From the NCBI RefSeq assembly GCF_000020225.1, contig NC_010655.1, forward strand, positions 2,010,001-2,042,000: DNA of 32,000 nt, written 5' to 3'. Position numbers and translations under genes: made by a program. Origin of the DNA: Akkermansia muciniphila ATCC BAA-835 (GTDB taxonomy: Bacteria > Verrucomicrobiota > Verrucomicrobiia > Verrucomicrobiales > Akkermansiaceae). The notes under the pieces are model-generated. The model was given only the letters and a program-made list of their open reading frames with translations. It did no database searches and had not been told where the DNA came from. The stretch's first letter is position 1; each line of letters opens with the position of its first letter. Below are positions 937 through 30,746 of the stretch, piece by piece.

Positions 937-1973
937 TGACTTAGGCCGTCGCCTTGCTCGCAAGGTGGCGGTCAATTCTTCAATTCGGCGTAAGTAATTC
1001 TCGTCGAAAATGCTTTAGCCATAAGAGAATCCAATCTTACCCATGTGTGGATTTTCACATTTCCCTCATTCAACCGATACGCAAATTCATCTACATATCT
1101 CTGTAAATGTTTTGTGCTGAATGAATGGTAGATTCCATAGAATCCTCTCTTCAAAACCGCCCATACGCTCTCGATGCCGTTAGTATGGGCCATTCCGTCA
1201 ACATACTGCTTGGCACTATGATTCACCACCTGATGATTGAACTGTGATTCTTTGTAAGAAGCATGTTCATCAGTAACCAGAACGGAATCCCGGCTCAAAT
1301 ACTTATTCAAAACTTGGTGAACTGTATCTCTTGAAGTGTCGGGAATAACCCTTGCTAAAACCTTTCCTGCTCTGGCTCTCATTCCTAAAACCGCTGTCTT
1401 TCCAACAATTCCGCGCCCAGCCTTCAATTTCTGAGATTCGTGCTTATTGGATTCCTTGCCTCCAATATACACCCCATCAGCTTCAACAATTCCAGATAGA
1501 AAGCCGTTATTGTCATCGTCATCATGGTTGGAATTGCATGCTTCCCTAATCCTTTGAAGCATGAACCACGCCGTTTTTTGCGTAACCCCAATTTCCTTGG
1601 AAAGTTGCATGGAGCTAATACCCTTTCTGGAAGTCACTACTAAATAGAAGGCAAAAATCCATTTATGAAGTGGAACATGGCTTCTCTCAAAAATAGTTCC
1701 AGTCCTCACAGTATAAACTTTCCCGCACTCCCCGCATTCAAAATACCCCTCAACCCCGTTCCTCTTTACTCTATACTGTTTTTCGCTTTTCCCGCAGAAC
1801 GGGCAAACTACCTTATCGCCCCACCGCTTTTCCTCTAAATACTTTTTAGCTGATTCCTCATTGGGGAATTTTTCAAAAAGCTCAAAAAGTGAAATAGTTA
1901 AGCGGTCGTTCATGGGTGCCTCCTTAGTATGGCTAATTAATAGCATACGGAGAAACCGAAGTCAAGTATATAA

Positions 1974-1975: not shown

Positions 1976-7599
<5,624 letters not shown>

Positions 7600-7646
7600 C
7601 GGAGCGGCAGGCGTTTTGCACTGCTTCCCGGATGGAGAAGTTTTCC

Positions 7647-7684
7647 AGCCGTGCGCCCTTTCCGGGGTGCACGGCTTGTTGTTG
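7647..7684 (+). terminator. Strong hairpin downstream of the LacZ-like GH2 gene (probable terminator or attenuator)
   Basis: AGCCGTGCGCCC-TTTCCG-GGGGTGCACGGCT forms a 12-bp stem with one G.U pair, followed by TGTTGTTG. The GTG at 7651 used by the ORF track lies inside this stem. Confidence 0.5.
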
Positions 7685-7716
7685 CGGGCTTTTCAGGGTG
7701 CGGAAATGTTTTTTTA

Positions 7717-10329
7717 ATGAAAGAAAGAACATGGCGGAATGGTAACATACGCATGCGCAAGATGATGGCCTGCATGCTGGGCGCTGCCCTGTGTTTTTCC
7801 ATGGCCGGAGCGGAAACAGGCGTTTCCTCTGCGGAAAAAGCTTCACCCCTGTTCGGGAGGATGATCTGGAATCGCGGCTGGGAGTTCCGGCTTGAGGACG
7901 AGCCCGGAAAGAGCGGCTGGCAGACGGTTCATCTGCCCCATACGTTCAGTCTGCCCTACTTTATGTCCGATTCCTTTTACACGGGGTTCGGCTCCTACCG
8001 CAAGAAGCTTGTCATGCCGGAGGAATGGCAGGGGAAGAAGGTGTTTCTGGATTGCGGCGCAGCTTTCCAGGTGGCGGAGGTGAAGGTGAATGGGAAGACT
8101 GCGGGAAGGCATGAAGGGGGGTATACGGCCTTCCGGTCGGATTTGACGCCTTTCCTGAAGCCCGGCGAGAACTGGGTGGAGGTACGGGTGGATAACCGCT
8201 GGAGCCCCCGCATTGCGCCTCGGGCGGGGGAGCATACTTTTTCCGGAGGACTGTACCGGAACGTGCATCTGCACGTGTGTTCTCCCGTGTATTTGCCCGC
8301 GCACGGAGTATGGGTTCAGACGCCGGAGGTGACGGCGGCCCGCGGGAAGGTCCGGATTTTGACGGAAGTGAAGAATGATACCGGGACAGTGAGGAAAGTG
8401 ACGGTGCGGCATACTGTGCGGGATGAGCAAAGCGGCTGCGTGGTGCTGCGGGGAGAGAAGGGCGCGGAACTGGGGGCCGGGGAAGATTCTCGCGTACAGG
8501 CTGACCTGCCTCCTCTGGCTTCTCCCAGGTTGTGGAGCCCTGCGGCCCCCAATATGTACCGTGTGACGACGGAATTGTTGGACGAGAAGGGGAAGGTGCT
8601 GGACCGGGCTGAAAATCCCCTGGGTTTCCGTACTCTGGAGCTGACGGCGGACCAGGGTATGCTGATTAACGGGAAACCTGTTTATCTGCAGGGGGCCAAT
8701 GTGCACCAGGACCACGCCGGGTGGGGGGATGCCGTGACGGATGCCGGGGCCCGCCGTGATGTACGGCTGATGAAGAACGCCGGGTTTAATTTCATCCGCG
8801 GCTCCCATTACCCTCATTCCCAGGCTTTTCTGGATGCTTGCGACCGGGAGGGCATGTGCATGCTGAATGAAGGCATTTTCTGGGGAATGGGCGGGTTCAA
8901 GGAGCATGACAGATACTGGAATTGCGATGCCTATCCTGCGGAAAAGAAGGATCGTATTGCGTTTGAGGAAAGCTGCATGCGCCAGGTGAGGGAGATGGTG
9001 CTTCAATTCCGCAATCATCCTTCCATCGTCATCTGGAGCATCAGCAATGAACCGTTTTTTACCAGGCATGCGCCGGAGGCCAGGGCTTTGTGCAACAGGC
9101 TCATTACCTTGGTGAAGGAGTTGGACCCGACGCGCCCCGTGTGCGCCGGGGGCGGGCAGCGCGGAAATTTTGACAAGCTGGGGGACATGGCCGCCTTGAA
9201 CGGGGACGGTTCCCATGTGAAGACGCCCGGCAGGCCCAGCATGGTGACGGAGTATGGTTCCGTGAGCTGCCGGAGGCCGGGGGCGTATGCGCCGGGCTGG
9301 GGGGATATGAAGAAGGATAAGGAAGCGGGGATTCGCTATCCCTGGCGCGTGGGAGAGGCGGTCTGGTGCGGCTTTGACCACGGCAGCATCTGGCCTTCCG
9401 GAGGGCGCATGGGCATTGTGGATTACTTCCGCATTCCCAAGCGGGCCTGGTACTGGTACAGGAATGCGTTGAGGAATATTCCTCCTCCGGAGTGGCCTGT
9501 AGAGGGGACTCCGGCACAGGTGAAACTGTCCGCGGACAAGAAGGTTATCAGCCCGGCGGACGGCACGGACGATGTGCATGTGACCGTGAAAGTGGCGGAC
9601 GCCGCCGGAAGGCAGATATCCAATGCCGTGCCGGTGACGCTTACGGTGGTATCGGGTCCCGGGGAGTTCCCTACCGGCAAAAGCATTACGTTCACGCCCG
9701 GAACGGATATTGATTTAATTGACGGCTGTGCGGCGATTGAGTTTCGGTCTTATTATGCCGGGAAGACAGTGATCAGGGCGTCTTCTCCCGGATTGAAGGG
9801 GGATAGCCTCCAAATCGTTTGCCGGAATGCTCCGGCTTACGTAGCGGGCAGGAGCGCGGAAACGCGGGAAAGGCCCTACAAGCGTTTTAGCGCAAAGGAG
9901 AGGGATATCCAGCTGGCGCGGTACGGACGGCCCGAATCCGGAGAGAAAGCCAATTTGGCTGTATTGAGGCCCTGTTCCGCTTCCTCCGGATTTCAGGAGA
10001 CGATGAAGGCTTCCGACGGTGACGATGTTTCTGCATGGCATCCGTCCGTGGAAGACAAAGCGCCGTGGTGGCAGCTGGACATGGAGTTTGAATTCCGCCT
10101 GGACCGGGTGGAGGTGAAGGCAGCCGGAAGCTGGAAGGGGCCGGCTCCCTCGGTTCAGGTCAGCAGGGACGGAAATAGCTGGAAGGACATTAAAGCCGTT
10201 TTGCGCAAGGATGGGACGGAGCTGACCGCAATGTGTCCGGAAGGGACCGGCGCCAGGTACGTACGCATCCGCCTGTCTCCGGGGCAGGGAATTGCGGAAG
10301 TGGCCGTATGGCCGGCGGATGCGTCATGA
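7717..10329 (+). CDS. Secreted GH2 family glycosidase with C-terminal discoidin-like domain
   Basis: Start is ATG 7717, or ATG 7753 which gives the signal peptide MRKMMACMLGAALCFSMAGA. GH2 motifs are GSHYPHS, acid/base WSISNEPF and nucleophile VTEYGS. The C-terminal segment SDGDDVSAWHP...PWWQLDM...IAEVAVW is F5/8 type C-like. Confidence 0.9.
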   Translation: MKERTWRNGNIRMRKMMACMLGAALCFSMAGAETGVSSAEKASPLFGRMIWNRGWEFRLEDEPGKSGWQTVHLPHTFSLPYFMSDSFYTGFGSYRKKLVMPEEWQGKKVFLDCGAAFQVAEVKVNGKTAGRHEGGYTAFRSDLTPFLKPGENWVEVRVDNRWSPRIAPRAGEHTFSGGLYRNVHLHVCSPVYLPAHGVWVQTPEVTAARGKVRILTEVKNDTGTVRKVTVRHTVRDEQSGCVVLRGEKGAELGAGEDSRVQADLPPLASPRLWSPAAPNMYRVTTELLDEKGKVLDRAENPLGFRTLELTADQGMLINGKPVYLQGANVHQDHAGWGDAVTDAGARRDVRLMKNAGFNFIRGSHYPHSQAFLDACDREGMCMLNEGIFWGMGGFKEHDRYWNCDAYPAEKKDRIAFEESCMRQVREMVLQFRNHPSIVIWSISNEPFFTRHAPEARALCNRLITLVKELDPTRPVCAGGGQRGNFDKLGDMAALNGDGSHVKTPGRPSMVTEYGSVSCRRPGAYAPGWGDMKKDKEAGIRYPWRVGEAVWCGFDHGSIWPSGGRMGIVDYFRIPKRAWYWYRNALRNIPPPEWPVEGTPAQVKLSADKKVISPADGTDDVHVTVKVADAAGRQISNAVPVTLTVVSGPGEFPTGKSITFTPGTDIDLIDGCAAIEFRSYYAGKTVIRASSPGLKGDSLQIVCRNAPAYVAGRSAETRERPYKRFSAKERDIQLARYGRPESGEKANLAVLRPCSASSGFQETMKASDGDDVSAWHPSVEDKAPWWQLDMEFEFRLDRVEVKAAGSWKGPAPSVQVSRDGNSWKDIKAVLRKDGTELTAMCPEGTGARYVRIRLSPGQGIAEVAVWPADAS

Positions 10330-18651: not shown

Positions 18652-19048
18652 ACTCTTGTATATACGTATCGCATTGCGTGAATTCGAGCCAATTGTAGGG
18701 ATTGCCTGCCCCGCAGAATCCAAAAGGAGAGCTGGTGTTGTTGCAAGTTGTTGATATTCTGTAAATCGTTTTAGGATTTAAGCTACTGGTCTTTTTTGAT
18801 GAGGTAAAGTGGGCGGATAATGTATAAATGATATGGTGTTATCAATGCATTACATTCCTGAGCGGTACGGCTGCAGGTGGTTTGTAATTATTTCTTAATT
18901 CATTTAAGATAAATATTTTATTGCGTATTTTGTTGGGCGGAGCCATTTCTTATTCTCCATTTTCTCACTTTCCCCCAATTTCCGCCAGGAAATGTGCACG
19001 TATCGGCATGGATGACTTTTCTCCCGTTTCCGGCACTAAATCTGCTTG

Positions 19049-19333
19049 ATGAAAGTGAATACCATACCGGGCGCATCCTATGCGCTGACTTGTACGGCTG
19101 CGTGTACTATCCATGCGCTTCTTAGCGACGCTTCTTCTCTGGTTATCCTGGAAACGGAAAACCCCGGACAATATTTTTTTATAGCTCCCACTGATACAAT
19201 AGAGGTATCAGACGAACACGCCCTGGTGACACAAACTTTTAAAGCAGCCGCTCCGGGATTGTCTGCCCGCAGCGGCATAAGGCCGGGAGTAAATGCTGAT
19301 TTAAAAAATCCGACGGTGGAAAAAGCGGTATGA
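19049..19333 (+). CDS. Hypothetical small protein (94 aa)
   Basis: An ATG-initiated ORF in an AT-rich intergenic patch, with no recognisable motif. Competing antisense ORFs (18965..19171, 19078..19338) look less protein-like. Coding status is uncertain. Confidence 0.35.
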   Translation: MKVNTIPGASYALTCTAACTIHALLSDASSLVILETENPGQYFFIAPTDTIEVSDEHALVTQTFKAAAPGLSARSGIRPGVNADLKNPTVEKAV

Positions 19334-19592: not shown

Positions 19593-19675
19593 TGGTACCG
19601 CCGGTGGGACTCGAACCCACACTCTTTTGGAACTCGATTTTGAGTCGAGCGCGTCTACCATTCCGCCACGACGGC
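19593..19675 (-). tRNA. tRNA-Leu (anticodon CAA), type II with long variable arm, CCA encoded
   Basis: The minus-strand sequence GCCGTCGTGGCGGAATGGTAGACGCGCTCGACTCAAAATCGAGTTCCAAAAGAGTGTGGGTTCGAGTCCCACCGGCGGTACCA folds by hand as follows. The acceptor stem is 7 bp with two G.U pairs. The anticodon stem is CTCGA/TCGAG with loop CTCAAAA. The T-arm is GTGGG-TTCGAGT-CCCAC. Confidence 0.9.
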
Positions 19676-19858: not shown

Positions 19859-20890
19859 TCACGCCGCCAACTCCCAAAATGCTCGCACCTCGCATCCTCG
19901 AATCCCCTGCGTATGCACATAGCGCGTCTGCAACAGCGTCCCGTCCCGATGCCCCATCGCCGCCTGCAAACGCCCCCAATCGTGAAACATCTTCGCATGA
20001 TACGACGCAAAGGTATGCCGCAGGACGTCCTGACGCCATGTCTGAAAACCCGCTGCCGAGCGCAAAGCGCGCCACCGCCTGTTCCAATCTGGCGGACAGA
20101 TGAAAACCGACTCCCTCTCTGCCCCCTGCGGATAATAACTCCTCAACCATGCCAACACGGAGCGAGACAGCGGCACCTGCCGACCGCCGCCCGTCTTGCT
20201 CTGCCTCGGGCGAATCCGCACCTCCCCCTCCTCCCAATCCACATCGCCCCAGGTCAAACGCCGCACCTCATACGGACGAATCCCGCCGTAGAGCATCATC
20301 ACCACGCCCGCCGCACAGGGGGAAAACTCCTCCCTCTCTGCCGTCCGCAGCAGGCGGCGCACTTCCTCGATACGGAGGGGGACGATCTCCCGCTCCGTCA
20401 CGCGCGGCACATCCACCAGCCGCACGGGATTATGCGCACACCAGCCTTTCTTCCACGCCACCGTGAACACTCCCGAGAGAATCGCCCGCGCATGACGACG
20501 TTGCGAGGGTGAAAGAAAGACTTTCTCCAACACAGCCGCACAGTCCGCCGTCGTCATCGAGCGCATGGGACGCGCCGCCAGATCGGGCACATCTCGCATC
20601 ATCCTCTGCGTGAAGGAGCGGATATCGCGCAGGGTGAGCGCCGAACGGTCGGCCTTGACGCGCAGGGTTTCTGCCACGGCTTTGGAGAAGGAGACCGTTT
20701 GCGTGGCGAGATGCTCGGCTTCGCACCCCAAGGCGATGACGCGGCGGCAGTGAAGGAGCAGAGCTTCTTTCTTTCTTACGGAAGAGCCTCCGCTTCCTTC
20801 GACCAGCTCCAGCATGAGACGAGCAACATCGGTGAGGGAGAAGGGGAGAGAGGCGAGGAGGGCAAGGGCGGTGCTAGCGTCGGTGTTCAT
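19859..20890 (-). CDS. Tyrosine-type site-specific recombinase (phage-type integrase)
   Basis: Catalytic boxes GGIRPYEVRRLTWGDV (Arg I) and VLRHTFASY...AMGHRDGTLLQTRYVH (R, H, Y). The start is uncertain: ATG 20890 (MNTDAS) is favoured because 20891-20950 is AT-rich and promoter-like. Alternatives are ATG 20917 and 20950. Confidence 0.9.
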   Translation of the reverse strand: MNTDASTALALLASLPFSLTDVARLMLELVEGSGGSSVRKKEALLLHCRRVIALGCEAEHLATQTVSFSKAVAETLRVKADRSALTLRDIRSFTQRMMRDVPDLAARPMRSMTTADCAAVLEKVFLSPSQRRHARAILSGVFTVAWKKGWCAHNPVRLVDVPRVTEREIVPLRIEEVRRLLRTAEREEFSPCAAGVVMMLYGGIRPYEVRRLTWGDVDWEEGEVRIRPRQSKTGGGRQVPLSRSVLAWLRSYYPQGAERESVFICPPDWNRRWRALRSAAGFQTWRQDVLRHTFASYHAKMFHDWGRLQAAMGHRDGTLLQTRYVHTQGIRGCEVRAFWELAA

Positions 20891-20978
20891 GGCAACAGGA
20901 TAAATAATACTCTTCATCAAGCCCAAAATAACGAAACTTGTCAAAAACATGGAATGGAACGGTAGTTATGCCTGTATG

Positions 20979-21101: not shown

Positions 21102-23099
21102 ATGAAACATCGAGGGAATGAGGCTTCGGGAGAGACGCAACTCGATGCCTCCCTTGTGGCTATTCTCCTCGCCGACCGTTCGAGCGGCGCTTTCATCCGC
21201 TGGGCCTGCAACGCCTACACTACCCACGGCGAGTCCTATGCGGCGGATCAAGAGATCTACCCCCATCAGGTGCATCTGATTCAGGAGCGCACCCGCAAGA
21301 CGCAGGAAGAACAGCGCGACCGCACCAAAAAATCCGCCGAAGTCTTTACCCCTGCTTGGCTGTGCAACGCCATGATCAACGCCCGCGATGCCGTTTACTT
21401 CGGGCGGGAGGAGGTCTTTAACCGCATGGAGGCTCCATCGTGGACGCCGACGCGCAAGACGATTGACTTTCCGACGACAGCATCTGGCCGCCGTCTCGCG
21501 TGGGAGCGTTACATCGATGCCCGCTGTCTGGAAATCACCTGCGGCGAAGCCCCCTTTCTCGTCTCGCGCTACGATGCCGTCGATGGTCGCCCCATCTCCT
21601 TGGCAGAGCGCATCGGCATCCTCGACCGCAAGCTGCGTATCATCGGCGAGCATACCTGCACCGCAGAGGACTGGTTTCACTGGGCAAAACGCGCCCTCGA
21701 AAGCGCCTACGCTTACGAATACCAGGGCGACAGCCTCTTTCTCGCCCGTCTCAATCTTTTTCTGAGCATTAGCGAGTACCACCGTCACCTGTGGAAACGC
21801 CCCCTCAACCGACACCAACAAGAGGAAGTTGCCCGCATCCTCTCGTGGAATCTCTGGCAGATGGACGGCCTGACGGCGACGACTCCCTTTGCCACGGAAC
21901 AGGGGAAGCCCGAGGATTCCTTATTTGATTTTTACGCCATCACAGCCGAAAGGCGCCCCCTCCGTAGCCTCATCCGCGACTGGCGCGGCAAAAAAACGAT
22001 TCGATTCTCTGAACTCAACCTATCCACCACCATGAAATTTGATTTTGTCATCGGCAATCCGCCGTATCAGCTGGAAACCGCCAATAAATCCCTTTCCAAC
22101 GGACAATTGCCAAGTAAAAGCATTTTTCATCATTTTCAGCTGAGCGCGGATCAGATTTCCTCCGGTCTTACCGTCTTGATTTATCCTGGAGGGCGATGGA
22201 TTCAGCGTTCTGGAAAAGGAATGGCGGATTTCGGCTTACAACAAATCAATGACAGCCGTTTACAAACCTTGTATTATTACCCCGACAGTACCGATCTCTT
22301 CCCTGCACAAGTTGCCGAAATTGCGGACGGCATCTCCATTGTGGTCAAAAATGCCCACAAGACGACCCCAAGCTTCCGCTACTTCTATATGCGGCGCGGA
22401 GAAAAAACAGGTGTCGAGCTGGAGCCTCCCGGCGAAAATATCCTTCCTCTAGACCCACGCGACGGAGCCGTTGTCAGGAAAATCGAGGATTTTGTTCAAA
22501 GAAACAAGTTGCCTTATTTGAACGATAATGTGCACTCAAGAAATCTATTTGGAATTGAGAGTAATTTTGTCGAAAAAAATCGAGATCAGGTTCGCCTCTA
22601 TCAAGAAGGGGATGCGGTAGATTGCGAGACGGAGATCAAGCTATATGCTAATGACCGAGCCGGGAAAGCTGGCAGAACGACATGGTTTGTTGCACCAAGA
22701 AGCATTATTCAGACGAATGAGGCTTACATCTCCAAATGGAAGGTTGTTGTTTCCAGTGCAAACGCCGGGGGACAAAAGAGAGATTGGCAGTTGGAAATCA
22801 TCGACAATCAATCGGCATTCGGTCGTTCGAGGGTTGCTCTTTCTTCTTTTGAAACGAAGCAGGAAGCGGAGAATTTTTACCACTATGTGAAGAGCTATAT
22901 TATTCGCTATGCCTTCCTGATGACGGATGAAGCTCTGACAACTTTGGCGCTGAAAGTGCCGGATATGTCAGATTATACTTCTGACAACAAGTTAATCGAC
23001 TGGTCGCAGGATATTGATAGTCAGTTGCAGAAGCTCATGTCCCTCAGTGATGCTGAGTTTGAATACATCAAAAACACGGTGCAGAGTGTACGAGCCTAA
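21102..23099 (+). CDS. N6-adenine DNA methyltransferase, gamma-class (Eco57I/TaqI-like order X-I-IV-TRD) with C-terminal target-recognition region
   Basis: Motif X is AEVFTP (residues ~79-84) and the motif I-like segment is LEITCGEAPFL (~143-153). Motif IV is DFVIGNPPY, with NPPY at nt 22056-22067. The ~340-aa C-terminal half has TRD-like features (SSFETKQEAENFYHYVKSYIIRYAF). No nuclease domain is evident. Confidence 0.85.
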   Translation: MKHRGNEASGETQLDASLVAILLADRSSGAFIRWACNAYTTHGESYAADQEIYPHQVHLIQERTRKTQEEQRDRTKKSAEVFTPAWLCNAMINARDAVYFGREEVFNRMEAPSWTPTRKTIDFPTTASGRRLAWERYIDARCLEITCGEAPFLVSRYDAVDGRPISLAERIGILDRKLRIIGEHTCTAEDWFHWAKRALESAYAYEYQGDSLFLARLNLFLSISEYHRHLWKRPLNRHQQEEVARILSWNLWQMDGLTATTPFATEQGKPEDSLFDFYAITAERRPLRSLIRDWRGKKTIRFSELNLSTTMKFDFVIGNPPYQLETANKSLSNGQLPSKSIFHHFQLSADQISSGLTVLIYPGGRWIQRSGKGMADFGLQQINDSRLQTLYYYPDSTDLFPAQVAEIADGISIVVKNAHKTTPSFRYFYMRRGEKTGVELEPPGENILPLDPRDGAVVRKIEDFVQRNKLPYLNDNVHSRNLFGIESNFVEKNRDQVRLYQEGDAVDCETEIKLYANDRAGKAGRTTWFVAPRSIIQTNEAYISKWKVVVSSANAGGQKRDWQLEIIDNQSAFGRSRVALSSFETKQEAENFYHYVKSYIIRYAFLMTDEALTTLALKVPDMSDYTSDNKLIDWSQDIDSQLQKLMSLSDAEFEYIKNTVQSVRA

Positions 23100-23114
23100 A
23101 AGGAGAATCCATCC

Positions 23115-26100
23115 ATGAACACCATCAACATCCGAAGCACGAAGAAGGTTGAGCCGAAGTGTTACGCCTACACGACTCCAGAGGTGCAGCGGCACGAGGG
23201 CTGGACGAAGATTGGCTACACCGAGCAGGATGATGTCGAGGTGCGCATCCGCCAGCAGACGCAGACGGTGGATGTGCGCTATTGCCTGGAATGGCACGAG
23301 TCGGCGCGTTTTGCCGACGGGACGGTGTTTCACGATAAGGCGTTTCATCGTTACTTGGGCAAGAAGGAGGTGGAACGCGAGGGGAATTCGGAGTGGTTTC
23401 ATCTTGTGCCCGAGGTGGCGCATGGTCATTTTCGGGAGTTTACCCGCAATCGCGGGGTGTTGCAGACGCCGGGTGCGGTGCCTTATGTGTTGCGGGCGGA
23501 GCAGGCGGAGGCGGTCGAGCGGACGCGGCTCTATATGGCGAGCCACGCGGGGCAAAGCCCGGAGTTTTTGTGGAATGCCAAGCCGCGTTTCGGCAAGACT
23601 TTGGCGGCGTATGATTTGTGCAAGCAGATGGGTGCGCGGACGGTGTTGATTGTGACGAATCGTCCGGCGATTGCTCATTCGTGGTACGATGATTATGTGC
23701 GTTTTATGGGGACGGAGTCGGGGTATTATTTCATCAGTGGGGCGGATGCTCTGCGGGGCTTGCCCCATGTGCTGGAGCGCGCGCAGTTGCCGAGTGATGC
23801 CGAGGGGTATATCGAGTTTGTGTCTCTGCAGGATTTGAAGGGTTCTCTGTATTTCGGCGGGGAGTTCGATAAGTTGGAGCATGTGCAAAAGTTGACCTGG
23901 GATCTGCTGATTGTGGATGAGGCGCACGAGGGGGTGGATACGTACAGGGCGGATGTGGCGTTCGAGCAGATTGCGCGTCGGGCGACGCTGCATCTGTCGG
24001 GGACGCCTTTTAAGGCTTTGGCAAATGAAAAGTTCGAGGAGAAGGCGATTTTCAACTGGACCTATGCCGATGAACAGCGCGCCAAGAGGGAGTGGCAGGA
24101 GGAGGCGGAGGAGGAAAATCCCTATGCCGCCTTGCCGCAGTTGGACCTTTATACGTACCGGATGTCTGAGGTAGTGCGCGATCGCCTGAAGCAGGGGGCT
24201 GATTTTGACGATGACGGCGAAAATGAGGCCTATGCTTTTGACTTGAATGAGTTTTTTGCCACGAAGAGTGACGGTTCGTTTAAGTATGATGAGGCGGTGG
24301 AGAGGTTTTTGGAGGCTTTGGCAGGGCAGGAGAAGTTTCCCTTTTCGACGGAGGCTTTGCGCCGCGAGGTGAAGCATAGTTTCTGGCTGTTGGACCGCGT
24401 GGACAGTGCCAAGGCGTTGGCGAAGAAGTTGAAGGCGCATCCCGTCTTCCGCGAGTACGAGGTGGTGGTGGCGGCTGGCGATGGCAAGACGGATGCGGAG
24501 GAGGAGGCGACATCGACGCTCAAGTCCTTGGATAAGGTGCGCACGGCGATTCGCGCCCACGAGAGGACGATTACGCTTTCCGTCGGGCAGTTGACGACGG
24601 GGGTGACGGTGCCGGAGTGGACGGCGGTCTTGATGCTGAGCAATGTGAAGAGTCCGTCGCTGTATATGCAGGCGGCGTTCCGGGCGCAGAATCCCTGCCT
24701 GTTCGTGGAGGGGGACGAGTTGCGGCGCAAGGAGAATGCGTATGTGTTTGATTTTGAACCGGCGCGGACGCTGGTGATTTTTGAGCAGTTCGCCAATGAC
24801 CTGTGTTCGGCGACGGTGAGTGGCGGAGGCGATGGGGAGACGCGCAAAAGGCAGGTGCGCGAGTTGCTGAATTTTTTCCCCGTCTATGGGGAGGATGAGG
24901 AGGGGGAGATGGTGGCTCTGGATGCGGAGAAGGTGTTGTCCGTGCCGCGCAAGATTCATGCCGTCGAGGTGGTGCGCCGTGGGTTCATGAGCAATTTCCT
25001 GTTCCAGAATATCGGGAATATTTTCTCGGCGCCGCGTCAGGTGGCGGATATCCTCGGGCAACTGCCGACGGTGAAGGAGCAGAAGCCGTCCAAGGCGAAG
25101 GAGGGCGGTCAGGGAGAGGGCGGTTTGTTGGACGGCGCCGCGGATTTGCCCCTGAATGAAAAGGGTGAAGTGGTGTTGCCCTTGGATGAATTGACCCGTA
25201 AGACAGGGGAGCTTTTCGGGGATAAGATATACAGCGACAATGTTGTGACGCAAACGAAGATCGATGAGGTCTCGACGAGTAACGCGCCGGATAAGAAGGC
25301 CGCACAAAATTTAGTGACGATATTGGTGGATACTGTGGTGAACCCCACCCTGCAGGATGCCAAGACGCACTATGGCGATGAGATGAGTAGAGCGTCTGAA
25401 CATCGTCTCAAAAAGCAGTTGCAGAATCAGGCGACGGTCGCGGTCGGCAAGGCAGCGACGACGCACAAGAAGAATCGCCACGAGACGGAGAAGGCAAAGA
25501 AAAGGGCTCTCGACGAGGCGCATGCCAAGGGGCAGAGTGAGGCCGAGGTTCAGGCGATTCAGGATCGTTTTGATGCCGAGCAGAGGGAGAATGAGCGTCG
25601 GTATCGAGAGGAGTTGAAGGAGGCAGCGGCAGAGATTGAGAAGAAGGCCAAACAGGCTGTGGTGGATACGGTGGAAACCGAGAAGGTTACCAGGAAGAAG
25701 GAGGCGATTGAAGAGGATATTCGCGGTCATTTGCGTGGCTTTGCGCGGACGATCCCCGCCTTTTTGATGGCGTATGGCGACGAGAATACCTGTCTGGATA
25801 ATTTCGATACGATTCTTCCCGATGAGGTCTTTAGAGAGGTGACGGGGATTTCTTTAGAGCAGTTCCGCATCTTGCGCGATGGGTGCGATTACGAAGATGA
25901 GGGTGTCCGGAAGCATTTTGACGGTCATTGTTTTGATCCGATTGTTTTTGATGATGCCGTTCAGGAGTTCTTGGCGTTGAAGAAGAAATTAGGCAATTAT
26001 TTTGATGAGTCGCAGTCGGAGGATATTTTCGATTATATTCCGCCGCAAAAGACGAATCAGATTTTCACGCCCAAGCATCTTGTCATGAAGATGGTCGATA

Positions 26101-26447
26101 TGTTGGAGGAGGAGTCTCCGGGCTGTTTCGATGACCCCGACAAGACGTTTATCGACCTCTACATGAAGTCGGGTCTATATGTGGCGGAGATTGTCAAACG
26201 CCTTTTCCGCAGCGAGGCGATGAAGGCGCGTTTCCCGCAGGCGGAGGAGCGTTTACGGCATATTTTCGCGCATCAGGTGTATGGCTTGGCGCCGACGGAG
26301 ATTATTTACCGCATTGCCTGTGCCTTTGTCCTGGGCTTCGACGAGGAGCTGCGCATCGAGCGGCATCATCTCGCGCGCTTCGATGCCTTGCCGGCGGTCA
26401 AAGACGGCACGCTGGAGGAGGCTCTGGACAAGATTTGGGAGAGGTGA
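23115..26447 (+). CDS. Fusion protein: N-terminal GIY-YIG superfamily (T5orf172-like) domain, SF2 DEAH helicase/translocase, charged coiled-coil, C-terminal methyltransferase-like (motif X/I only) tail
   Basis: - AAGGAG RBS 8 nt upstream; the gene starts 15 nt after the methyltransferase stop.
- GIY-YIG-like pattern: CYAYT...WTKIGYT...VRIRQQ...FHDKAFHRYL...GNSEWF (residues ~15-100).
- Helicase motif I NAKPRFGKT, motif II LLIVDEAHEG, motif III HLSGTPF, motifs V/VI SVGQLTTGVTVPEW and QAAFRAQNP.
- Lys/Glu-rich helical stretch around nt 25450-25730.
- Tail from nt 26061: IFTPKHLVMKMVDML...FIDLYMKSGLYVAEI...QVYGLAPTEI, with no NPPY-type motif IV. Confidence 0.85.
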   Translation: MNTINIRSTKKVEPKCYAYTTPEVQRHEGWTKIGYTEQDDVEVRIRQQTQTVDVRYCLEWHESARFADGTVFHDKAFHRYLGKKEVEREGNSEWFHLVPEVAHGHFREFTRNRGVLQTPGAVPYVLRAEQAEAVERTRLYMASHAGQSPEFLWNAKPRFGKTLAAYDLCKQMGARTVLIVTNRPAIAHSWYDDYVRFMGTESGYYFISGADALRGLPHVLERAQLPSDAEGYIEFVSLQDLKGSLYFGGEFDKLEHVQKLTWDLLIVDEAHEGVDTYRADVAFEQIARRATLHLSGTPFKALANEKFEEKAIFNWTYADEQRAKREWQEEAEEENPYAALPQLDLYTYRMSEVVRDRLKQGADFDDDGENEAYAFDLNEFFATKSDGSFKYDEAVERFLEALAGQEKFPFSTEALRREVKHSFWLLDRVDSAKALAKKLKAHPVFREYEVVVAAGDGKTDAEEEATSTLKSLDKVRTAIRAHERTITLSVGQLTTGVTVPEWTAVLMLSNVKSPSLYMQAAFRAQNPCLFVEGDELRRKENAYVFDFEPARTLVIFEQFANDLCSATVSGGGDGETRKRQVRELLNFFPVYGEDEEGEMVALDAEKVLSVPRKIHAVEVVRRGFMSNFLFQNIGNIFSAPRQVADILGQLPTVKEQKPSKAKEGGQGEGGLLDGAADLPLNEKGEVVLPLDELTRKTGELFGDKIYSDNVVTQTKIDEVSTSNAPDKKAAQNLVTILVDTVVNPTLQDAKTHYGDEMSRASEHRLKKQLQNQATVAVGKAATTHKKNRHETEKAKKRALDEAHAKGQSEAEVQAIQDRFDAEQRENERRYREELKEAAAEIEKKAKQAVVDTVETEKVTRKKEAIEEDIRGHLRGFARTIPAFLMAYGDENTCLDNFDTILPDEVFREVTGISLEQFRILRDGCDYEDEGVRKHFDGHCFDPIVFDDAVQEFLALKKKLGNYFDESQSEDIFDYIPPQKTNQIFTPKHLVMKMVDMLEEESPGCFDDPDKTFIDLYMKSGLYVAEIVKRLFRSEAMKARFPQAEERLRHIFAHQVYGLAPTEIIYRIACAFVLGFDEELRIERHHLARFDALPAVKDGTLEEALDKIWER

Positions 26448-27170: not shown

Positions 27171-27960
27171 GGGATTCCAGCATGGCCTGGTGGGAGTTCA
27201 GGAAGTCATCCAGGCTGAAGACTTCCAGCGTAATAAGGGGGGAGAAATGAAGGTCCCACATGGGGTGCAGAATGGCGTCCAGCGTAGCGGCAGGCATGTG
27301 GTGCAGGGATTTGTGGTCCCGTTTTTCCAGCCCGTGCAGGTGGCACATGCGTATGTCCGGCAGCCAGAGCGGCAGAAGTTTTTCCGGCCGCAGGCCTTCT
27401 TTCCAGACATGGCCTATGTCAAAGCAACGTGAATGGGGTGTAGCGGCTACCAGTTTATCCAGATAGTCGGTCGGATGGCGTTCCAAATTTTCCAGGGCCA
27501 GGCATTCCGGTGCGGGGAGGTGGGGCGTGATTTGTTCCAGACTCCGGAGGATTCGTTCCGTTTCGCGTTCCGTAAGATGGGGGCGCATATCAGGACCGGG
27601 GATATGGTCCGTGACCACATGCATGACCCAGGTGTGGGGCTCCAGTTCCCGTGTCAGGTCAATGGCGCGAATGATGTTTTCCGTATAACGGCGGCTTGAT
27701 TCTTCCGTGGCGAAGCTGCCGTCCGTAGGCAGGTGGACGTTCCAGGTAACCCCGGCATCTGCAGCGATTCCGGCCAGTTCCCGTATTTCCGCAGGGGTAA
27801 TGAGTTCCTTTCCGCATTCTCCGGCTTCCAGCAGGAGCAGAGCGACATCATCCGCGTAATGGACGCATTCCCTGATGGCGGGCACGTAGTAGTCCGGGAT
27901 GATGAAGGAGGTGCATCCGATGTTGAGGCCTGGAACGCGGCATTTGTGTGGAGTTTTCAT
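27145..27960 (-). CDS. cbiR: Xylose-isomerase-like TIM-barrel (AP endonuclease 2 superfamily) protein embedded in the cob operon; matches what is described as cobamide-remodelling phosphodiesterase CbiR
   Basis: The start ATG at 27960 overlaps the cobS stop (ATGA). Metal-ligand-like motifs typical of the fold are WNVHLP, ALENLE, FDIGHVW and CHLHGLE. The gene sits between cobS and cobU. The 105-codon N-terminal extension in the ORF track overlaps cobS and is an artefact. Confidence 0.8.
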   Translation of the reverse strand: MKTPHKCRVPGLNIGCTSFIIPDYYVPAIRECVHYADDVALLLLEAGECGKELITPAEIRELAGIAADAGVTWNVHLPTDGSFATEESSRRYTENIIRAIDLTRELEPHTWVMHVVTDHIPGPDMRPHLTERETERILRSLEQITPHLPAPECLALENLERHPTDYLDKLVAATPHSRCFDIGHVWKEGLRPEKLLPLWLPDIRMCHLHGLEKRDHKSLHHMPAATLDAILHPMWDLHFSPLITLEVFSLDDFLNSHQAMLESHERYITKH

Positions 27961-28697
27961 AAAGTGCAGAAGGTGAGCAGGACAAGCCATTCCGTACATT
28001 CCACGGTACAGCCGAATACATCCCCGGTAACGCCGCCCAGGCGGCGGCGCGCGTATAGAAGCAGGCCCATGGAGCCGGCCAGGGCGGAGAGCAGGGCGTA
28101 CAGCCCGTTCCATCCTGCCAGAGCGCAGGCAGCCAGGGTGACGGCTGCGGCAGCCAGGGCGTGCCCGGGGCGCGTTCCCTGCTTGAACGCTTCCCCCATG
28201 CCTCCATGCCGTGCGCCCGGAAAGCGCATGGCGATGAATATCTGGCTGCGGGCAAGCAATCCTGCCAGAGCGCACGCCGTGAGCAGAAGTTCCCAGGAGC
28301 CGTGGGCCGCCAGAGTCGCCAGGGCGGCTCCCTTGAACGCCAGGTTGAAAAACAGGGCCGTGCCGCCGAAGGTCCCCAGGCGGGAGTCTTTCATGATTTC
28401 CAGCCTGCGTTCCCGGGATACTTCAATGGGAAGCCCGTCTCCGCAGTCCGCTACTCCGTCCAGGTGCAGGCCGCCCGTGACGGCTACCCAGCAGGCACAG
28501 CCGATAACGCCGCAGACCAGGGGGGGGAAGAGCAGGGTTGTCGTCCAGGTCAGGCCGCCCGCAAGCCCCCCCACTACCAGGCCAACCAGCGGTAGCCAGG
28601 CGGAAATTCCGTTCAGGTCATTTTGCAGCGGCCACGGCCCTACGGGCAGCCGGGTCAGGAAGCCGAAGGCGGAGCGGATGGTGGTGATGACAGCCAT
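27957..28697 (-). CDS. cobS: Adenosylcobinamide-GDP ribazoletransferase (cobalamin 5'-phosphate synthase)
   Basis: The N-terminus is AFGFLTRLPV. The conserved segment HLDGVADCGDGL is present, and the protein is polytopic and hydrophobic throughout. Confidence 0.92.
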   Translation of the reverse strand: MAVITTIRSAFGFLTRLPVGPWPLQNDLNGISAWLPLVGLVVGGLAGGLTWTTTLLFPPLVCGVIGCACWVAVTGGLHLDGVADCGDGLPIEVSRERRLEIMKDSRLGTFGGTALFFNLAFKGAALATLAAHGSWELLLTACALAGLLARSQIFIAMRFPGARHGGMGEAFKQGTRPGHALAAAAVTLAACALAGWNGLYALLSALAGSMGLLLYARRRLGGVTGDVFGCTVECTEWLVLLTFCTL

Positions 28698-28716
28698 GGA
28701 TACAGGGAAGAAAGGG

Positions 28717-29757
28717 TCAGCGCGGAACGGTGATGTCCAGTTCCGGCAGGGTTTTCATTTCAGAAAGTACGCGCGTGGCGGCGTCCAGCAGGGGAAAGAA
28801 CAGGGCCGCTCCCGTGCCTTCCCCCAGGCAGAGGCCCAGGTCCATGTACATGGTGACGCCGATGTGGTCCATAATGAGCTTATGCCCCGGTTCCGCGGAG
28901 TTGTGGGAGCCGATGAAGTATTGCGCCGCTTCCGGGCGAATGCCCTGGGCGATGGCCGCGGCCGCCCCGGCAATGAAGCCGTCAATGACGATGGGAACGC
29001 GCAGGGAGGCCGCCCCCAGCATCAGTCCGGCCATGGCTCCTATTTCCGGTCCTCCCACCTTCGCCAGCACGTCAATGGCATCGGAAGGGTCTGGCTTGTT
29101 CAGGGCGATTCCCTGTTCGATGAGTTTTATTTTTTTGCGGATGACTTCTCCTCTGACGCCGGAACCGCGTCCCGTCACGGTTTCCACAGGGGTGCCCGTG
29201 AGCACGGCGACGATGGCGGAAGAGGGGGTGGTGTTGCCAATGCCCATTTCTCCGGCGGCCACAATGTCCAGCCCTTTGTTTTTTTCTTCACGGGCCATGT
29301 CAATGCCCACTTGCAGGCATTTCAGGGCCTGTTCCCGCGTCATGGCCGGCCCCCTGCTGAAGTCGTTGGCGCCGTGCATGACTTTTCTTTTGACCAGCCC
29401 CGGCAGGTCGCCGAAGTCGTAATTGACGCCTACGTCCACTACGGAAAGGCGTGCTCCCGCGTTGCGTGTAAAGGCGTTGATCGTGCCTCCGCCCTGAAGG
29501 AAGTTGCGGGTCTGGATGTAGGTAACGTCCGTGGATGTCAGGCTGAGGCCGTGGTCGGCGATGTGGTGGTCCGCGGCGAACAGGACTATGGCTTTGTCCT
29601 TCAGGCGCGGCGCGGGATTGCCGGTCATGCCGGCAATACGGATGGCCACGGGTTCCAGTTTTCCCAGGGCAAGGGGAGGCTTGGCCAGAATTTTCTGATG
29701 TTCCAGGGCCGCTTTTGCGGCCTGTTCGTCCAACGGGGGGATATGCAGTTTGTTCAT
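28717..29757 (-). CDS. cobT: Nicotinate-nucleotide--dimethylbenzimidazole phosphoribosyltransferase
   Basis: Motifs are LAKPPLALGKLE, FAADHHIADHG and AGEMGIGNTTPSSA. The start ATG 29757 overlaps the cbiB stop (ATGA). The longer ORF-track start at 30078 overlaps cbiB and is an artefact. Confidence 0.92.
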   Translation of the reverse strand: MNKLHIPPLDEQAAKAALEHQKILAKPPLALGKLEPVAIRIAGMTGNPAPRLKDKAIVLFAADHHIADHGLSLTSTDVTYIQTRNFLQGGGTINAFTRNAGARLSVVDVGVNYDFGDLPGLVKRKVMHGANDFSRGPAMTREQALKCLQVGIDMAREEKNKGLDIVAAGEMGIGNTTPSSAIVAVLTGTPVETVTGRGSGVRGEVIRKKIKLIEQGIALNKPDPSDAIDVLAKVGGPEIGAMAGLMLGAASLRVPIVIDGFIAGAAAAIAQGIRPEAAQYFIGSHNSAEPGHKLIMDHIGVTMYMDLGLCLGEGTGAALFFPLLDAATRVLSEMKTLPELDITVPR

Positions 29758-30746
29758 GATGTCCAGAAGTGGGGGGTGAAGAGAAGAAGGAGAGTGAACG
29801 CCAGCGTACCCGTGGCGGCAGTCGTCCACATGAGCCGAATGGCCAGGGCCAGGTCGCTGGCGGAGGCTTTGGTTCGCCCTGTTCCTATCCAGGGGTAGTT
29901 TGCAGGAATTCCCTTGTAAGAGACCGGGCCCCCGAGACGGAGGCCCAGCGCTCCAGCGAAGGCCGCTTCGCTCCATGCGGAATTGGGGCTGGCGTGGGCG
30001 TTCCGGAAGGCCCATCCCATGGTGAGCGCCCTCCGGGCGGAGGTTCCTTCCACCATCAGGGCGGAAAAGGAAATACACGGTAAAATAAGGCGTGCGGGGA
30101 TGAAGTTGAGCGCGTCATCCGTGCGTGCGGCAAAGGTGCCGAAGTGTCTGTACCGGTCATTTTTTTTCCCCCACATGGCATCCAGGATGTTGAAAACACG
30201 ATGCGCCAGCGCGGCGGAAGCCGCCCCGGAGGCACCTCCTGCCAGGCAGCCTGCTGAGGCCCAGAACAGGGTGGAAAAAACGCCATCCGTCAAGTTCTCC
30301 GCCACGCTTTCAATGGCCGCTCTGGCGATGCCGTAGACGTCCATCCGTTCCGTATCCCGTCCCACGATCATGGAGACGGAGTGCCGGGCCTCTCCGGCGT
30401 TCCCGCTGCGCAGGGCGTTTTCCACCTTCCGGGCATGCTCGGCCAGGCTGCGCGGGGCCATGCAGATGTAAATGACCAGAACGGACGGAATCCAGGGTGC
30501 CCAGGGGGAGGGTAACAGGGAAAAGGGAAGGAAGAGCGCCGCGCAGCCGAACCATGCGGCAATGCAGGTTGCCAGCGCGGCCGCCATTCCCGCATGAAAA
30601 GTTCCTCCCCACCTTTGCCTCGCCAGTGTTTCCATGCGGAGCGCGCACCGGCCGATCAGACAGACGGGATGAAACCTGTTGGGCGGTTCTCCCGCCAGAA
30701 TATCCAGCAGGAAGGCCGCAGGCAGGATGAACGGGCACGGGAACAT
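29754..30746 (-). CDS. cbiB: Adenosylcobinamide-phosphate synthase
   Basis: The N-terminus DILAGEPPNRFHPVCLIGR is typical of CbiB/CobD. This is a hydrophobic membrane protein, and its start lies 3 nt after the cobQ stop. Confidence 0.92.
   Translation of the reverse strand: MFPCPFILPAAFLLDILAGEPPNRFHPVCLIGRCALRMETLARQRWGGTFHAGMAAALATCIAAWFGCAALFLPFSLLPSPWAPWIPSVLVIYICMAPRSLAEHARKVENALRSGNAGEARHSVSMIVGRDTERMDVYGIARAAIESVAENLTDGVFSTLFWASAGCLAGGASGAASAALAHRVFNILDAMWGKKNDRYRHFGTFAARTDDALNFIPARLILPCISFSALMVEGTSARRALTMGWAFRNAHASPNSAWSEAAFAGALGLRLGGPVSYKGIPANYPWIGTGRTKASASDLALAIRLMWTTAATGTLAFTLLLLFTPHFWTS

Follow-up and report, generated by a model that had tools for sequence, protein, structure and literature searches.

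The stretch analysed here, referred to below as the window, comprises 32,000 nt of the Akkermansia muciniphila ATCC BAA-835 chromosome (NC_010655.1, positions 2,010,001-2,042,000), and all coordinates are counted from its first nucleotide. Two consecutive genes on its forward strand are the subject of this analysis: one for an N6-adenine methyltransferase and, immediately behind it, one for a protein of 1110 residues, hereafter called R, which carries a small nuclease-type domain in front of a superfamily 2 (SF2) translocase. We will argue that the two genes probably form an ATP-dependent restriction-modification (RM) system of the DrdVI family. They are tightly packed, the methyltransferase stop codon (23097-23099) directly abutting the AAGGAG ribosome-binding site of R, and this placement between the stop codon of one gene and the start codon of the next points to operon-like coupling. 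The features of the locus and of its upstream neighbourhood are collected in Table 1.

Table 1. Coordinates of the methyltransferase and R genes, of their predicted modules, and of the elements upstream
Feature	Position	Strand	Evidence and remarks
R gene, 1110 residues	23115..26447	+	Open reading frame (ORF) and translation; nuclease-type domain, SF2 translocase, coiled coil, C-terminal half-methyltransferase
T5orf172/MUG113 (GIY-YIG clan) nuclease-type domain, R residues 15-110	23157..23444	+	Pfam, conservation, AlphaFold2 (AF2) model, Foldseek
SF2 helicase/translocase core, R residues 126-640	23490..25034	+	Pfam ResIII, E=2.7e-11; motifs conserved
Long helical, coiled-coil-like linker, R residues 726-877	25290..25745	+	AF2 model, where it forms three long helices
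Homologue of the N-terminal half of M2.DrdVI, R residues 966-1068	26010..26318	+	BLASTP against M2.DrdVI 13-119, E=2e-15
AAGGAG ribosome-binding site of R	23100..23105	+	Read from the sequence; 9 nt between AAGGAG and the R start codon
Eco57I-type N6-adenine methyltransferase, 665 residues, NPPY at 319-322	21102..23099	+	Pfam, PADLOC; directly upstream of R
Module A, M1.DrdVI-like half, methyltransferase residues 1-303	21102..22010	+	Matches to M1.DrdVI, PADLOC and a Lactobacillus plantarum protein
Module B, NPPY catalytic half and presumed target-recognition region, methyltransferase residues 309-665	22026..23099	+	M2.DrdVI; Pfam Eco57I
Tyrosine recombinase (phage-integrase family)	19859..20950	-	Pfam Phage_integrase, E=2.2e-20; directly upstream of the RM pair
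tRNA-Leu(CAA)	19593..19675	-	ARAGORN; adjoins the integrase

A first-pass annotation, made by eye from the sequence, had proposed that the N-terminus of R is a GIY-YIG module of the T5orf172/Mug113 flavour. All of the motifs that it quoted are indeed present between residues 15 and 110, namely CYAYT (16-20), WTKIGYT (30-36), VRIRQQ (43-48), FHDKAFHRYL (72-81), and SEWF (92-95). Scanned alone, residues 1-135 matched both Pfam MUG113 (PF13455; E=8.7e-8, 33.1 bits, cut-off 22.3) and Pfam T5orf172 (PF10544; E=7.3e-6, 26.9 bits, cut-off 20), so that the proposed flavour holds. Among 47 diverged homologous N-domains, the T5orf172 model was matched by 39, the MUG113 model by 37, and the classical PF01541 model by none. 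Membership of the R N-domain in the T5orf172/MUG113 family is firm; its place in the wider GIY-YIG superfamily rests on the published and Pfam-clan assignment of the T5orf172 family (for example PMC8263062) and on the compatible topology described below, not on a significant direct match.

Conservation was assessed on an alignment of the query with 94 N-domains taken from representatives of 50%-identity clusters, 95 sequences altogether. K32, G34, and D74 are invariant, followed by Y17 and E93 (99% each), R44 (98%), T36 (96%), H78 (95%), G29 (93%), Q48 (91%), and Y19 (87%, otherwise W or F), with W94 and F95 both above 90%. The Tyr, Arg, and Glu positions, which the first-pass annotation had named beforehand as the place where its idea could fail, are thus conserved in 98-99% of the homologues. 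Its assignment of the remaining GIY-YIG elements fared less well: Y35, which it took for the tyrosine of the YIG motif, is kept in only 59% of the sequences, the invariant residue being K32, and N91 is not conserved. An AF2 model of the domain was computed for residues 1-140 from an alignment of 47 sequences. In it, Y17 takes the place of the canonical GIY tyrosine on the strand 15-20, R44 that of the catalytic arginine on the helix 41-50, and E93, just before the strand 94-96, that of the metal-binding glutamate. We regard Y17, K32, R44, D74, H78, and E93 as candidate catalytic residues.

The same model, with a mean predicted local distance difference test score (pLDDT) of 93.2, shows the order β-β-α-β-α-β-α, with strands at 15-20, 30-36, 57-63, and 94-96 and helices at 41-50, 74-83, and 99-112, an order compatible with the GIY-YIG fold. 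When it was compared by Foldseek with the predicted viral structures of BFVD, 23 matches were obtained at E<=1e-3, and nearly all of the named ones were T5orf172, MUG113, Bro, or endonuclease entries; a 'G-I-Y Y-I-G endonuclease' stood at rank 30 (template-modelling score normalised to the target 0.68, root-mean-square deviation 3.3, 92 columns). One might suspect that the motifs resemble GIY-YIG elements by chance, the helicase having merely an unstructured extension at its N-terminus, and the Pfam score of the full-length protein is indeed weak (E=5.4e-4). However, the domain-only scores above the Pfam cut-offs, the family-wide matches, the model at pLDDT 93, and the conservation of individual columns leave this idea with hardly any probability.

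Behind the N-domain, the translocase core displays Walker A (PRFGKT, 157-162), DEAH (268-271), SGTP (295-298), and QAAFRAQN (519-526); in 41 homologues, GKT (160-162), DEAH, SGTP, and QxxFRxQN are invariant or nearly so. Walker A begins about 50 residues past residue 110, close to the 45 or so estimated at first pass, and the proposed fusion of the N-domain to an SF2 translocase adjoining a methyltransferase is borne out. In the AF2 model of full-length R (pLDDT 84.8, predicted template-modelling score 0.77), two RecA-like lobes are followed by three helices and then by a C-terminal domain. Its best fold match in the PDB, as determined by Foldseek, was LlaBIII (4xqk; E=4e-11, about 1100 aligned columns), after which came Snf2-type remodellers, ZorD, and SauUSI. 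With the R and methylase sequences as queries, a search of the PDB chains yielded nothing relevant and no detectable similarity to LlaBIII.

The C-terminal region of R (residues 966-1068) resembles one half of a methyltransferase. Its motif X reads QIFTP (982-986); motif I is degenerate (DLYMKSG, 1014-1020), YGLAPTE (1056-1062) is motif II-like, and NPPY is absent. In the AF2 model, residues 1012-1088 form only β1-αA-β2-αB-β3, that is, the first half of the Rossmann methyltransferase fold. The upstream methyltransferase is itself bipartite, as seen in two separate PADLOC 'MTase_II' matches (residues 12-303, E=6.4e-78; residues 309-661, E=1.3e-17). Module A, with the motifs EVFTP (80-84), EITCGEAPF (144-152), and YEYQGD (205-210), also matches the upstream protein of the L. 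plantarum relative (E=9e-37).

The relationship between these pieces becomes clear from a plasmid of Deinococcus wulumuqiensis NEB 479. When plasmids were searched by tblastn, relatives labelled "GIY-YIG nuclease family protein" were returned, and another relative lay on pDrdVI (15.5 kb), which encodes M1.DrdVI (212 residues), M2.DrdVI (539 residues), and a helicase-type protein of 851 residues. Residues 11-635 of R, nuclease-type domain included, align with this R.DrdVI at 34% identity (BLASTP, E=4e-88). Methylase residues 70-258 correspond to M1.DrdVI (LEITCGEAPFLV on LEPACGSGNFLV; E=8e-7), methylase residues 301-665 to M2.DrdVI 192-536 (pairwise comparison, E=2e-20), and the C-terminal region of R to the N-terminal part of M2.DrdVI. 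One methyltransferase fold is split over the two window proteins, one portion lying in R 880-1110 (25752-26444) and the other in the upstream protein. DrdVI is listed in REBASE under the 'split methylase' family, with MaeIV and Btr188ORF1790/1760 as relatives, and likewise has the methylase genes before R. The division into chains differs: DrdVI has M1, M2, and an 851-residue R, whereas the window has one chain made of M1 and the C-terminal half of M2, and a second of 1110 residues made of R, the coiled coil, and the N-terminal half of M2. In addition, R.DrdVI has Arg at the position of H78. Judged by sequence, the gene pair is a DrdVI-family member with permuted polypeptide boundaries. We also asked if the C-terminal domain of R and module A might be close paralogues, and rejected this idea, as the alignment is confined to the motif X helix (BLASTP E=0.036; HHalign E=2e-4); the half-methylase nature that they have in common is apparent only through M1.DrdVI and M2.DrdVI.

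M1-2.DrdVI, cloned in Escherichia coli, methylates GCAGCC to give N6-methyladenine (m6A), and the enzyme is listed as Type IIG (PMC6430315); for M1-2.MaeIV, the published methylation site is GCACY. In a Bibersteinia relative, an R protein with a GIY-YIG domain is paired with a partner that resembles M1.DrdVI in its N-terminal and M2.DrdVI in its C-terminal part, and authors from New England Biolabs treat R.DrdVI as the restriction endonuclease (PMC4996451). The combination of nuclease and translocase is thus already on record for the DrdVI family, by REBASE and by these authors, and our finding is confirmatory in this respect.

If M1 is called A, the N-terminal half of M2 Cct, its C-terminal half with NPPY and the target-recognition domain (TRD) B, and the nuclease plus translocase R, then DrdVI and a Rhizobium plasmid encode A, Cct-B, and R as separate chains, plasmids of Lactobacillales encode A and R-Cct-B, and the Akkermansia window encodes A-B and R-Cct. 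Across lineages, these four modules occur in at least four polypeptide arrangements.

As to known restriction systems, the gene pair follows the logic of the Type ISP enzymes LlaGI and LlaBIII, in which the nuclease stands N-terminally and is followed by an SF2 translocase, a coupler, and a gamma-class N6-adenine methyltransferase with TRD, and the Lactobacillales-plasmid relatives join R and the catalytic half of the methyltransferase in a chain of about 1400 residues, as Type ISP does. The nuclease differs, being of the Mrr-type PD-(D/E)xK class in Type ISP and of the T5orf172/GIY-YIG type in the window, and so does the gene organization: a Type ISP enzyme is a single polypeptide, whereas the window has two genes and a split methyltransferase, and an additional M1 half-methylase is present in every case, being encoded on its own even where the relatives are fused. 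We therefore rejected a classification as split Type ISP, there being neither an Mrr-family nuclease nor a single polypeptide. A Type III-like classification was likewise rejected, the nuclease-type domain being N-terminal and of a different fold, and the C-terminus being a half-methyltransferase, not a PD-(D/E)xK endonuclease. To our knowledge, PD-(D/E)xK nucleases do the cutting in every ATP-dependent restriction enzyme examined to date, whether of Type I, III, or ISP.

The first-pass annotation had expected a GIY-YIG domain on a translocase to bring different chemistry and different products. This was overstated: both kinds of nuclease leave 5'-phosphate and 3'-OH ends, although the one-metal chemistry of GIY-YIG nucleases does differ. 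A nicking nuclease mounted on a translocase is no departure either, as PD-(D/E)xK enzymes of Type ISP already work as single-active-site nicking nucleases on a translocase.

The same three activities as in the window are found in the DnmA(YeeA)-YeeB-YeeC clusters, which consist of an MmeI-like methylase, an SF2 helicase, and a T5orf172/GIY-YIG protein, YeeC being the one with the T5orf172 annotation (PMC9973331). Different from the window, these clusters keep nuclease and helicase in separate proteins and have a complete methylase of the MmeI type. YeeA/YeeB/YeeC were predicted as a helicase plus GIY-YIG restriction system as early as 2009 (PMC2731913), and such a system was again predicted in a remark in PMC3553950; the idea raised at first pass is not a new one. 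Outside RM systems, Odn (Gp88) of phage ICP1 and the T5orf172 homing endonucleases belong to the same Pfam family as the R N-domain, with the catalytic Arg and Glu retained. Odn carries the domain fused to a sequence-specific DNA-binding domain, with no motor. It cleaves DNA, and its conserved-Glu mutant E180A is catalytically null (PMC8263062).

On the strength of the domain identities, the residue conservation, the intact motor, the split-methylase linkage, and the homology to DrdVI, the methylase of which is experimentally active, we read 21102-26447 as a two-gene, ATP-dependent RM system of the DrdVI family, situated on a small integrase-associated island and using the T5orf172/GIY-YIG-type domain as its nuclease; we put the probability of this reading at roughly 0.72. 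The T5orf172 domain is most likely the catalytic endonuclease of the restriction enzyme, for three reasons. First, it is the sole nuclease candidate in the system: Pfam, NCBIfam, and PADLOC detected no other nuclease domain in R or the methyltransferase protein, the NCBIfam scan giving no useful match and PADLOC giving only the generic 'MTase_II' and a weak 'REase_MTase_IIG' on the helicase part. Second, Odn is a T5orf172 protein and a proven nuclease that needs the equivalent Glu. Third, in sister genomes that retain a full-length methylase ORF, R has been inactivated by mutations of independent origin, as described below.

We infer a mechanism, encompassing nuclease activity, ATP-dependent translocation, cleavage geometry, and a docking role of the R C-terminus, along the following lines. 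The upstream protein, composed of M1 and the NPPY/TRD half of M2, would recognise a short site and convert its adenine to m6A. A complex containing R would bind the site when unmethylated, and by analogy with Type ISP the motor would then use ATP to pull DNA through, with the single active site of the T5orf172 nuclease producing nicks. Within that site, R44 would stabilise the transition state and E93 would hold the metal, with Y17, K32, and H78 surrounding the scissile phosphate. Double-strand breaks would arise where converging or stalled complexes nick both strands, and T5orf172 cleavage should leave 5'-phosphate and 3'-OH ends. The degenerate N-terminal half of M2 at the end of R most likely serves to dock R onto the recognition/methyltransferase protein. 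A stronger version of this proposal would make R and the methylase an obligate holoenzyme, assembled by fragment complementation of the split methyltransferase fold, in which the motor drives a single-site GIY-YIG-type nickase. It would follow if the two M2 halves have to come together again in the way they do in M2.DrdVI, where both are part of one chain; we consider it a tentative idea and on balance doubt it.

Several observations weigh against a restriction system with a T5orf172 nuclease. The second motif of the N-domain is K-I-G-x-T, in which the invariant K32, two residues before G34, occupies the slot of the canonical YIG tyrosine, and residues 96-125 contain no conserved Asn after E93 in the 95 aligned sequences. 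The α/β topology and the T5orf172-family matches agree with the structural expectation raised at first pass, but comparison with solved GIY-YIG enzymes gave no significant match: a Foldseek search of the N-domain against the PDB returned nothing at E<=1e-3, its 50 best-ranked entries including no GIY-YIG structure, and a profile of the N-domain family searched against PDB sequences found no GIY-YIG chain, only a spurious match to Mfa2. HHalign of the N-domain family with an I-TevI-like profile, compiled from nine sequences in phage records with an I-TevI query verified at 100% identity, gave a non-significant probability of 0.2%; the best local alignment, equally non-significant but in the expected register, pairs K32, G34, and R44 with Y17, G19, and R27 of I-TevI. 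PLE CapR is a domesticated T5orf172 protein that binds DNA without cutting it. In the literature searched, we found no cleavage data for DrdVI or its family and no biochemical data for R. Finally, the related DnmA-YeeB-YeeC cluster gave no phage protection in Bacillus subtilis (PMC9973331).

The points that concern the N-domain would also fit a non-catalytic DNA-binding or regulatory module that loads or anchors the translocase, cleavage being absent or residing elsewhere. CapR sets a precedent for this, and many records still give T5orf172 the name of a DNA-binding domain, under which it was originally described. Yet very diverged homologues conserve at 98-99% the Arg and Glu on which catalysis by GIY-YIG enzymes and Odn depends, alongside Y17, D74, and H78, the system offers no alternative nuclease domain, and R.DrdVI is regarded as the endonuclease by the New England Biolabs authors. 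A non-catalytic N-domain therefore appears improbable to us.

The B. subtilis result bears on a different concern, namely that the locus might not be a working restriction system in its host, with an orphan-like epigenetic methylase standing next to a helicase-nuclease that is a relic or put to other use. Such a state has been proposed for the three-gene analogue DnmA-YeeB-YeeC of B. subtilis, and R is independently truncated in several Akkermansia-type genomes as well as in Bibersteinia strains. In three Akkermansia-type genomes, R is disrupted near 24185-24195 (residues ~357-360), in one of them by a CAG to TAG nonsense mutation and in the other two by the loss of 1 bp at a point 7 bp upstream. 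Two of these three loci have a methylase ORF called at full length, and in the third the methylase is split into 90 and 563 residues; three further truncated R calls were also noted. Loss of R with retention of the methylase ORF is usual in RM decay, when restriction is costly. In the window, however, R is full length with its motifs intact, and the identical protein recurs in the same context in human-gut genomes of 2.66 Mb, with 633 blocks of the assembly collection containing it. Moreover, related Vibrio crassostreae homologues do affect phage sensitivity (PMC9973331), and the three-module linkage is tight across phyla. A non-functional relic is possible for some strains, the intact and widely conserved window gene arguing otherwise here, and for the locus at hand we hold this explanation to be unlikely.

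Our preferred reading, a DrdVI-family RM system with a T5orf172-type nuclease, also places the gene pair on an island. The tyrosine recombinase next to it probably marks a mobile element, and the arrangement of recombinase and RM genes recurs in other Akkermansia-type genomes. We found no convincing att direct repeats flanking the integrase/RM island, and the tRNA-Leu gene has its 5' end towards the island and its 3' end away from it, so that integration targeted to this tRNA is not established. The island is flanked by housekeeping genes, including glycoside hydrolases, a sialate esterase, and cobalamin genes. In the Akkermansia methylome literature, we found no motif attributable to this methylase.

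Three further features of the window lie outside the RM pair. An IS1595-family transposase gene (DDE_Tnp_IS1595 plus zinc ribbon; 972-1946, reverse strand) adjoins an outer-membrane beta-barrel gene and a GH2/GH20 glycosidase block. An ORF of 95 codons (19046-19333, forward strand) without family match lies between a GntR-type regulator and tRNA-Leu and is called in sister genomes too. Lastly, an ORF of 721 codons (27733-29898, forward strand), also without family matches, lies opposite the cobalamin genes in antisense orientation and is unlikely to be a genuine gene.

Beyond Akkermansia, relatives of R are numerous. They gave more than 8000 matches in 90%-identity clusters, many of them full length at about 60% identity, and in 50%-identity clusters 2956 representatives at E<=1e-3, 778 of which also reach E<=1e-30. 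According to a scan of genome contigs, at least 579 representative species genomes hold an R relative (579 of 600 confirmed among the matches listed). For a closer look at gene organization, 80 loci were retrieved among the matches listed, 61 of them complete, and the following module statistics rest on these. The loci span Firmicutes, Actinobacteria, Alphaproteobacteria, Bacteroidota, Verrucomicrobia, Planctomycetes, Spirochaetes, Gastranaerophilales, and Methanocorpusculum. In each of the 61 complete loci, A, B, and R follow one another in this order on the same strand, with A and B fused in 28 and separate in 33. Identity across loci is 62-72% in the R helicase core and about 37-45% in A, versus 19-60% in B, and the hypervariability of B relative to A and R fits a specificity module. 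Module B of the window also has a lower G+C content (0.45-0.47) than its surroundings (0.55-0.60), which, combined with its hypervariability, suggests exchange of specificity modules.

Ten of the 61 loci carry inserts of 0.3-1.9 kb between A and B, encoding opposite-strand XRE-type helix-turn-helix proteins (possible controllers), a nucleotidyltransferase/HEPN-like pair, a DUF559-like protein, or additional, truncated copies of the NPPY half. A different departure from the common scheme is seen on plasmid pCV56A of Lactococcus lactis CV56 (2824-7876), where a gene for a half-methylase of 230 residues precedes one for a 1452-residue protein in which an N-terminal DUF4145 replaces T5orf172, followed by ResIII and a complete Eco57I methylase domain. 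R proteins at 52-60% identity are spread over at least eight phyla of bacteria and also reach a methanogenic archaeon, the latter represented by a Methanocorpusculum metagenome-assembled genome. The named sources of R-carrying loci are mostly gut, faecal, or rumen samples, and the spread of R over phyla, combined with these gut-type sources, argues for extensive horizontal transfer within that habitat.

For restriction biology, the DrdVI family would represent a replacement of the PD-(D/E)xK nuclease by a T5orf172/GIY-YIG-type domain in ATP-dependent restriction. Should R and the methylase indeed form an obligate holoenzyme, then the restriction subunit might be needed for recognising the site or for methylating it, and this would constitute a mechanistically distinct branch of ATP-dependent restriction with collision-dependent breaks. 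The shuffling of M1, the two halves of M2, and R among polypeptides is a clean natural case of domain permutation in the evolution of RM systems, in a gene family that is very widespread in gut bacteria. As for Akkermansia itself, the locus is a probable barrier to genetic manipulation, and knowledge of its recognition site and methylase would aid the building of genetic tools.

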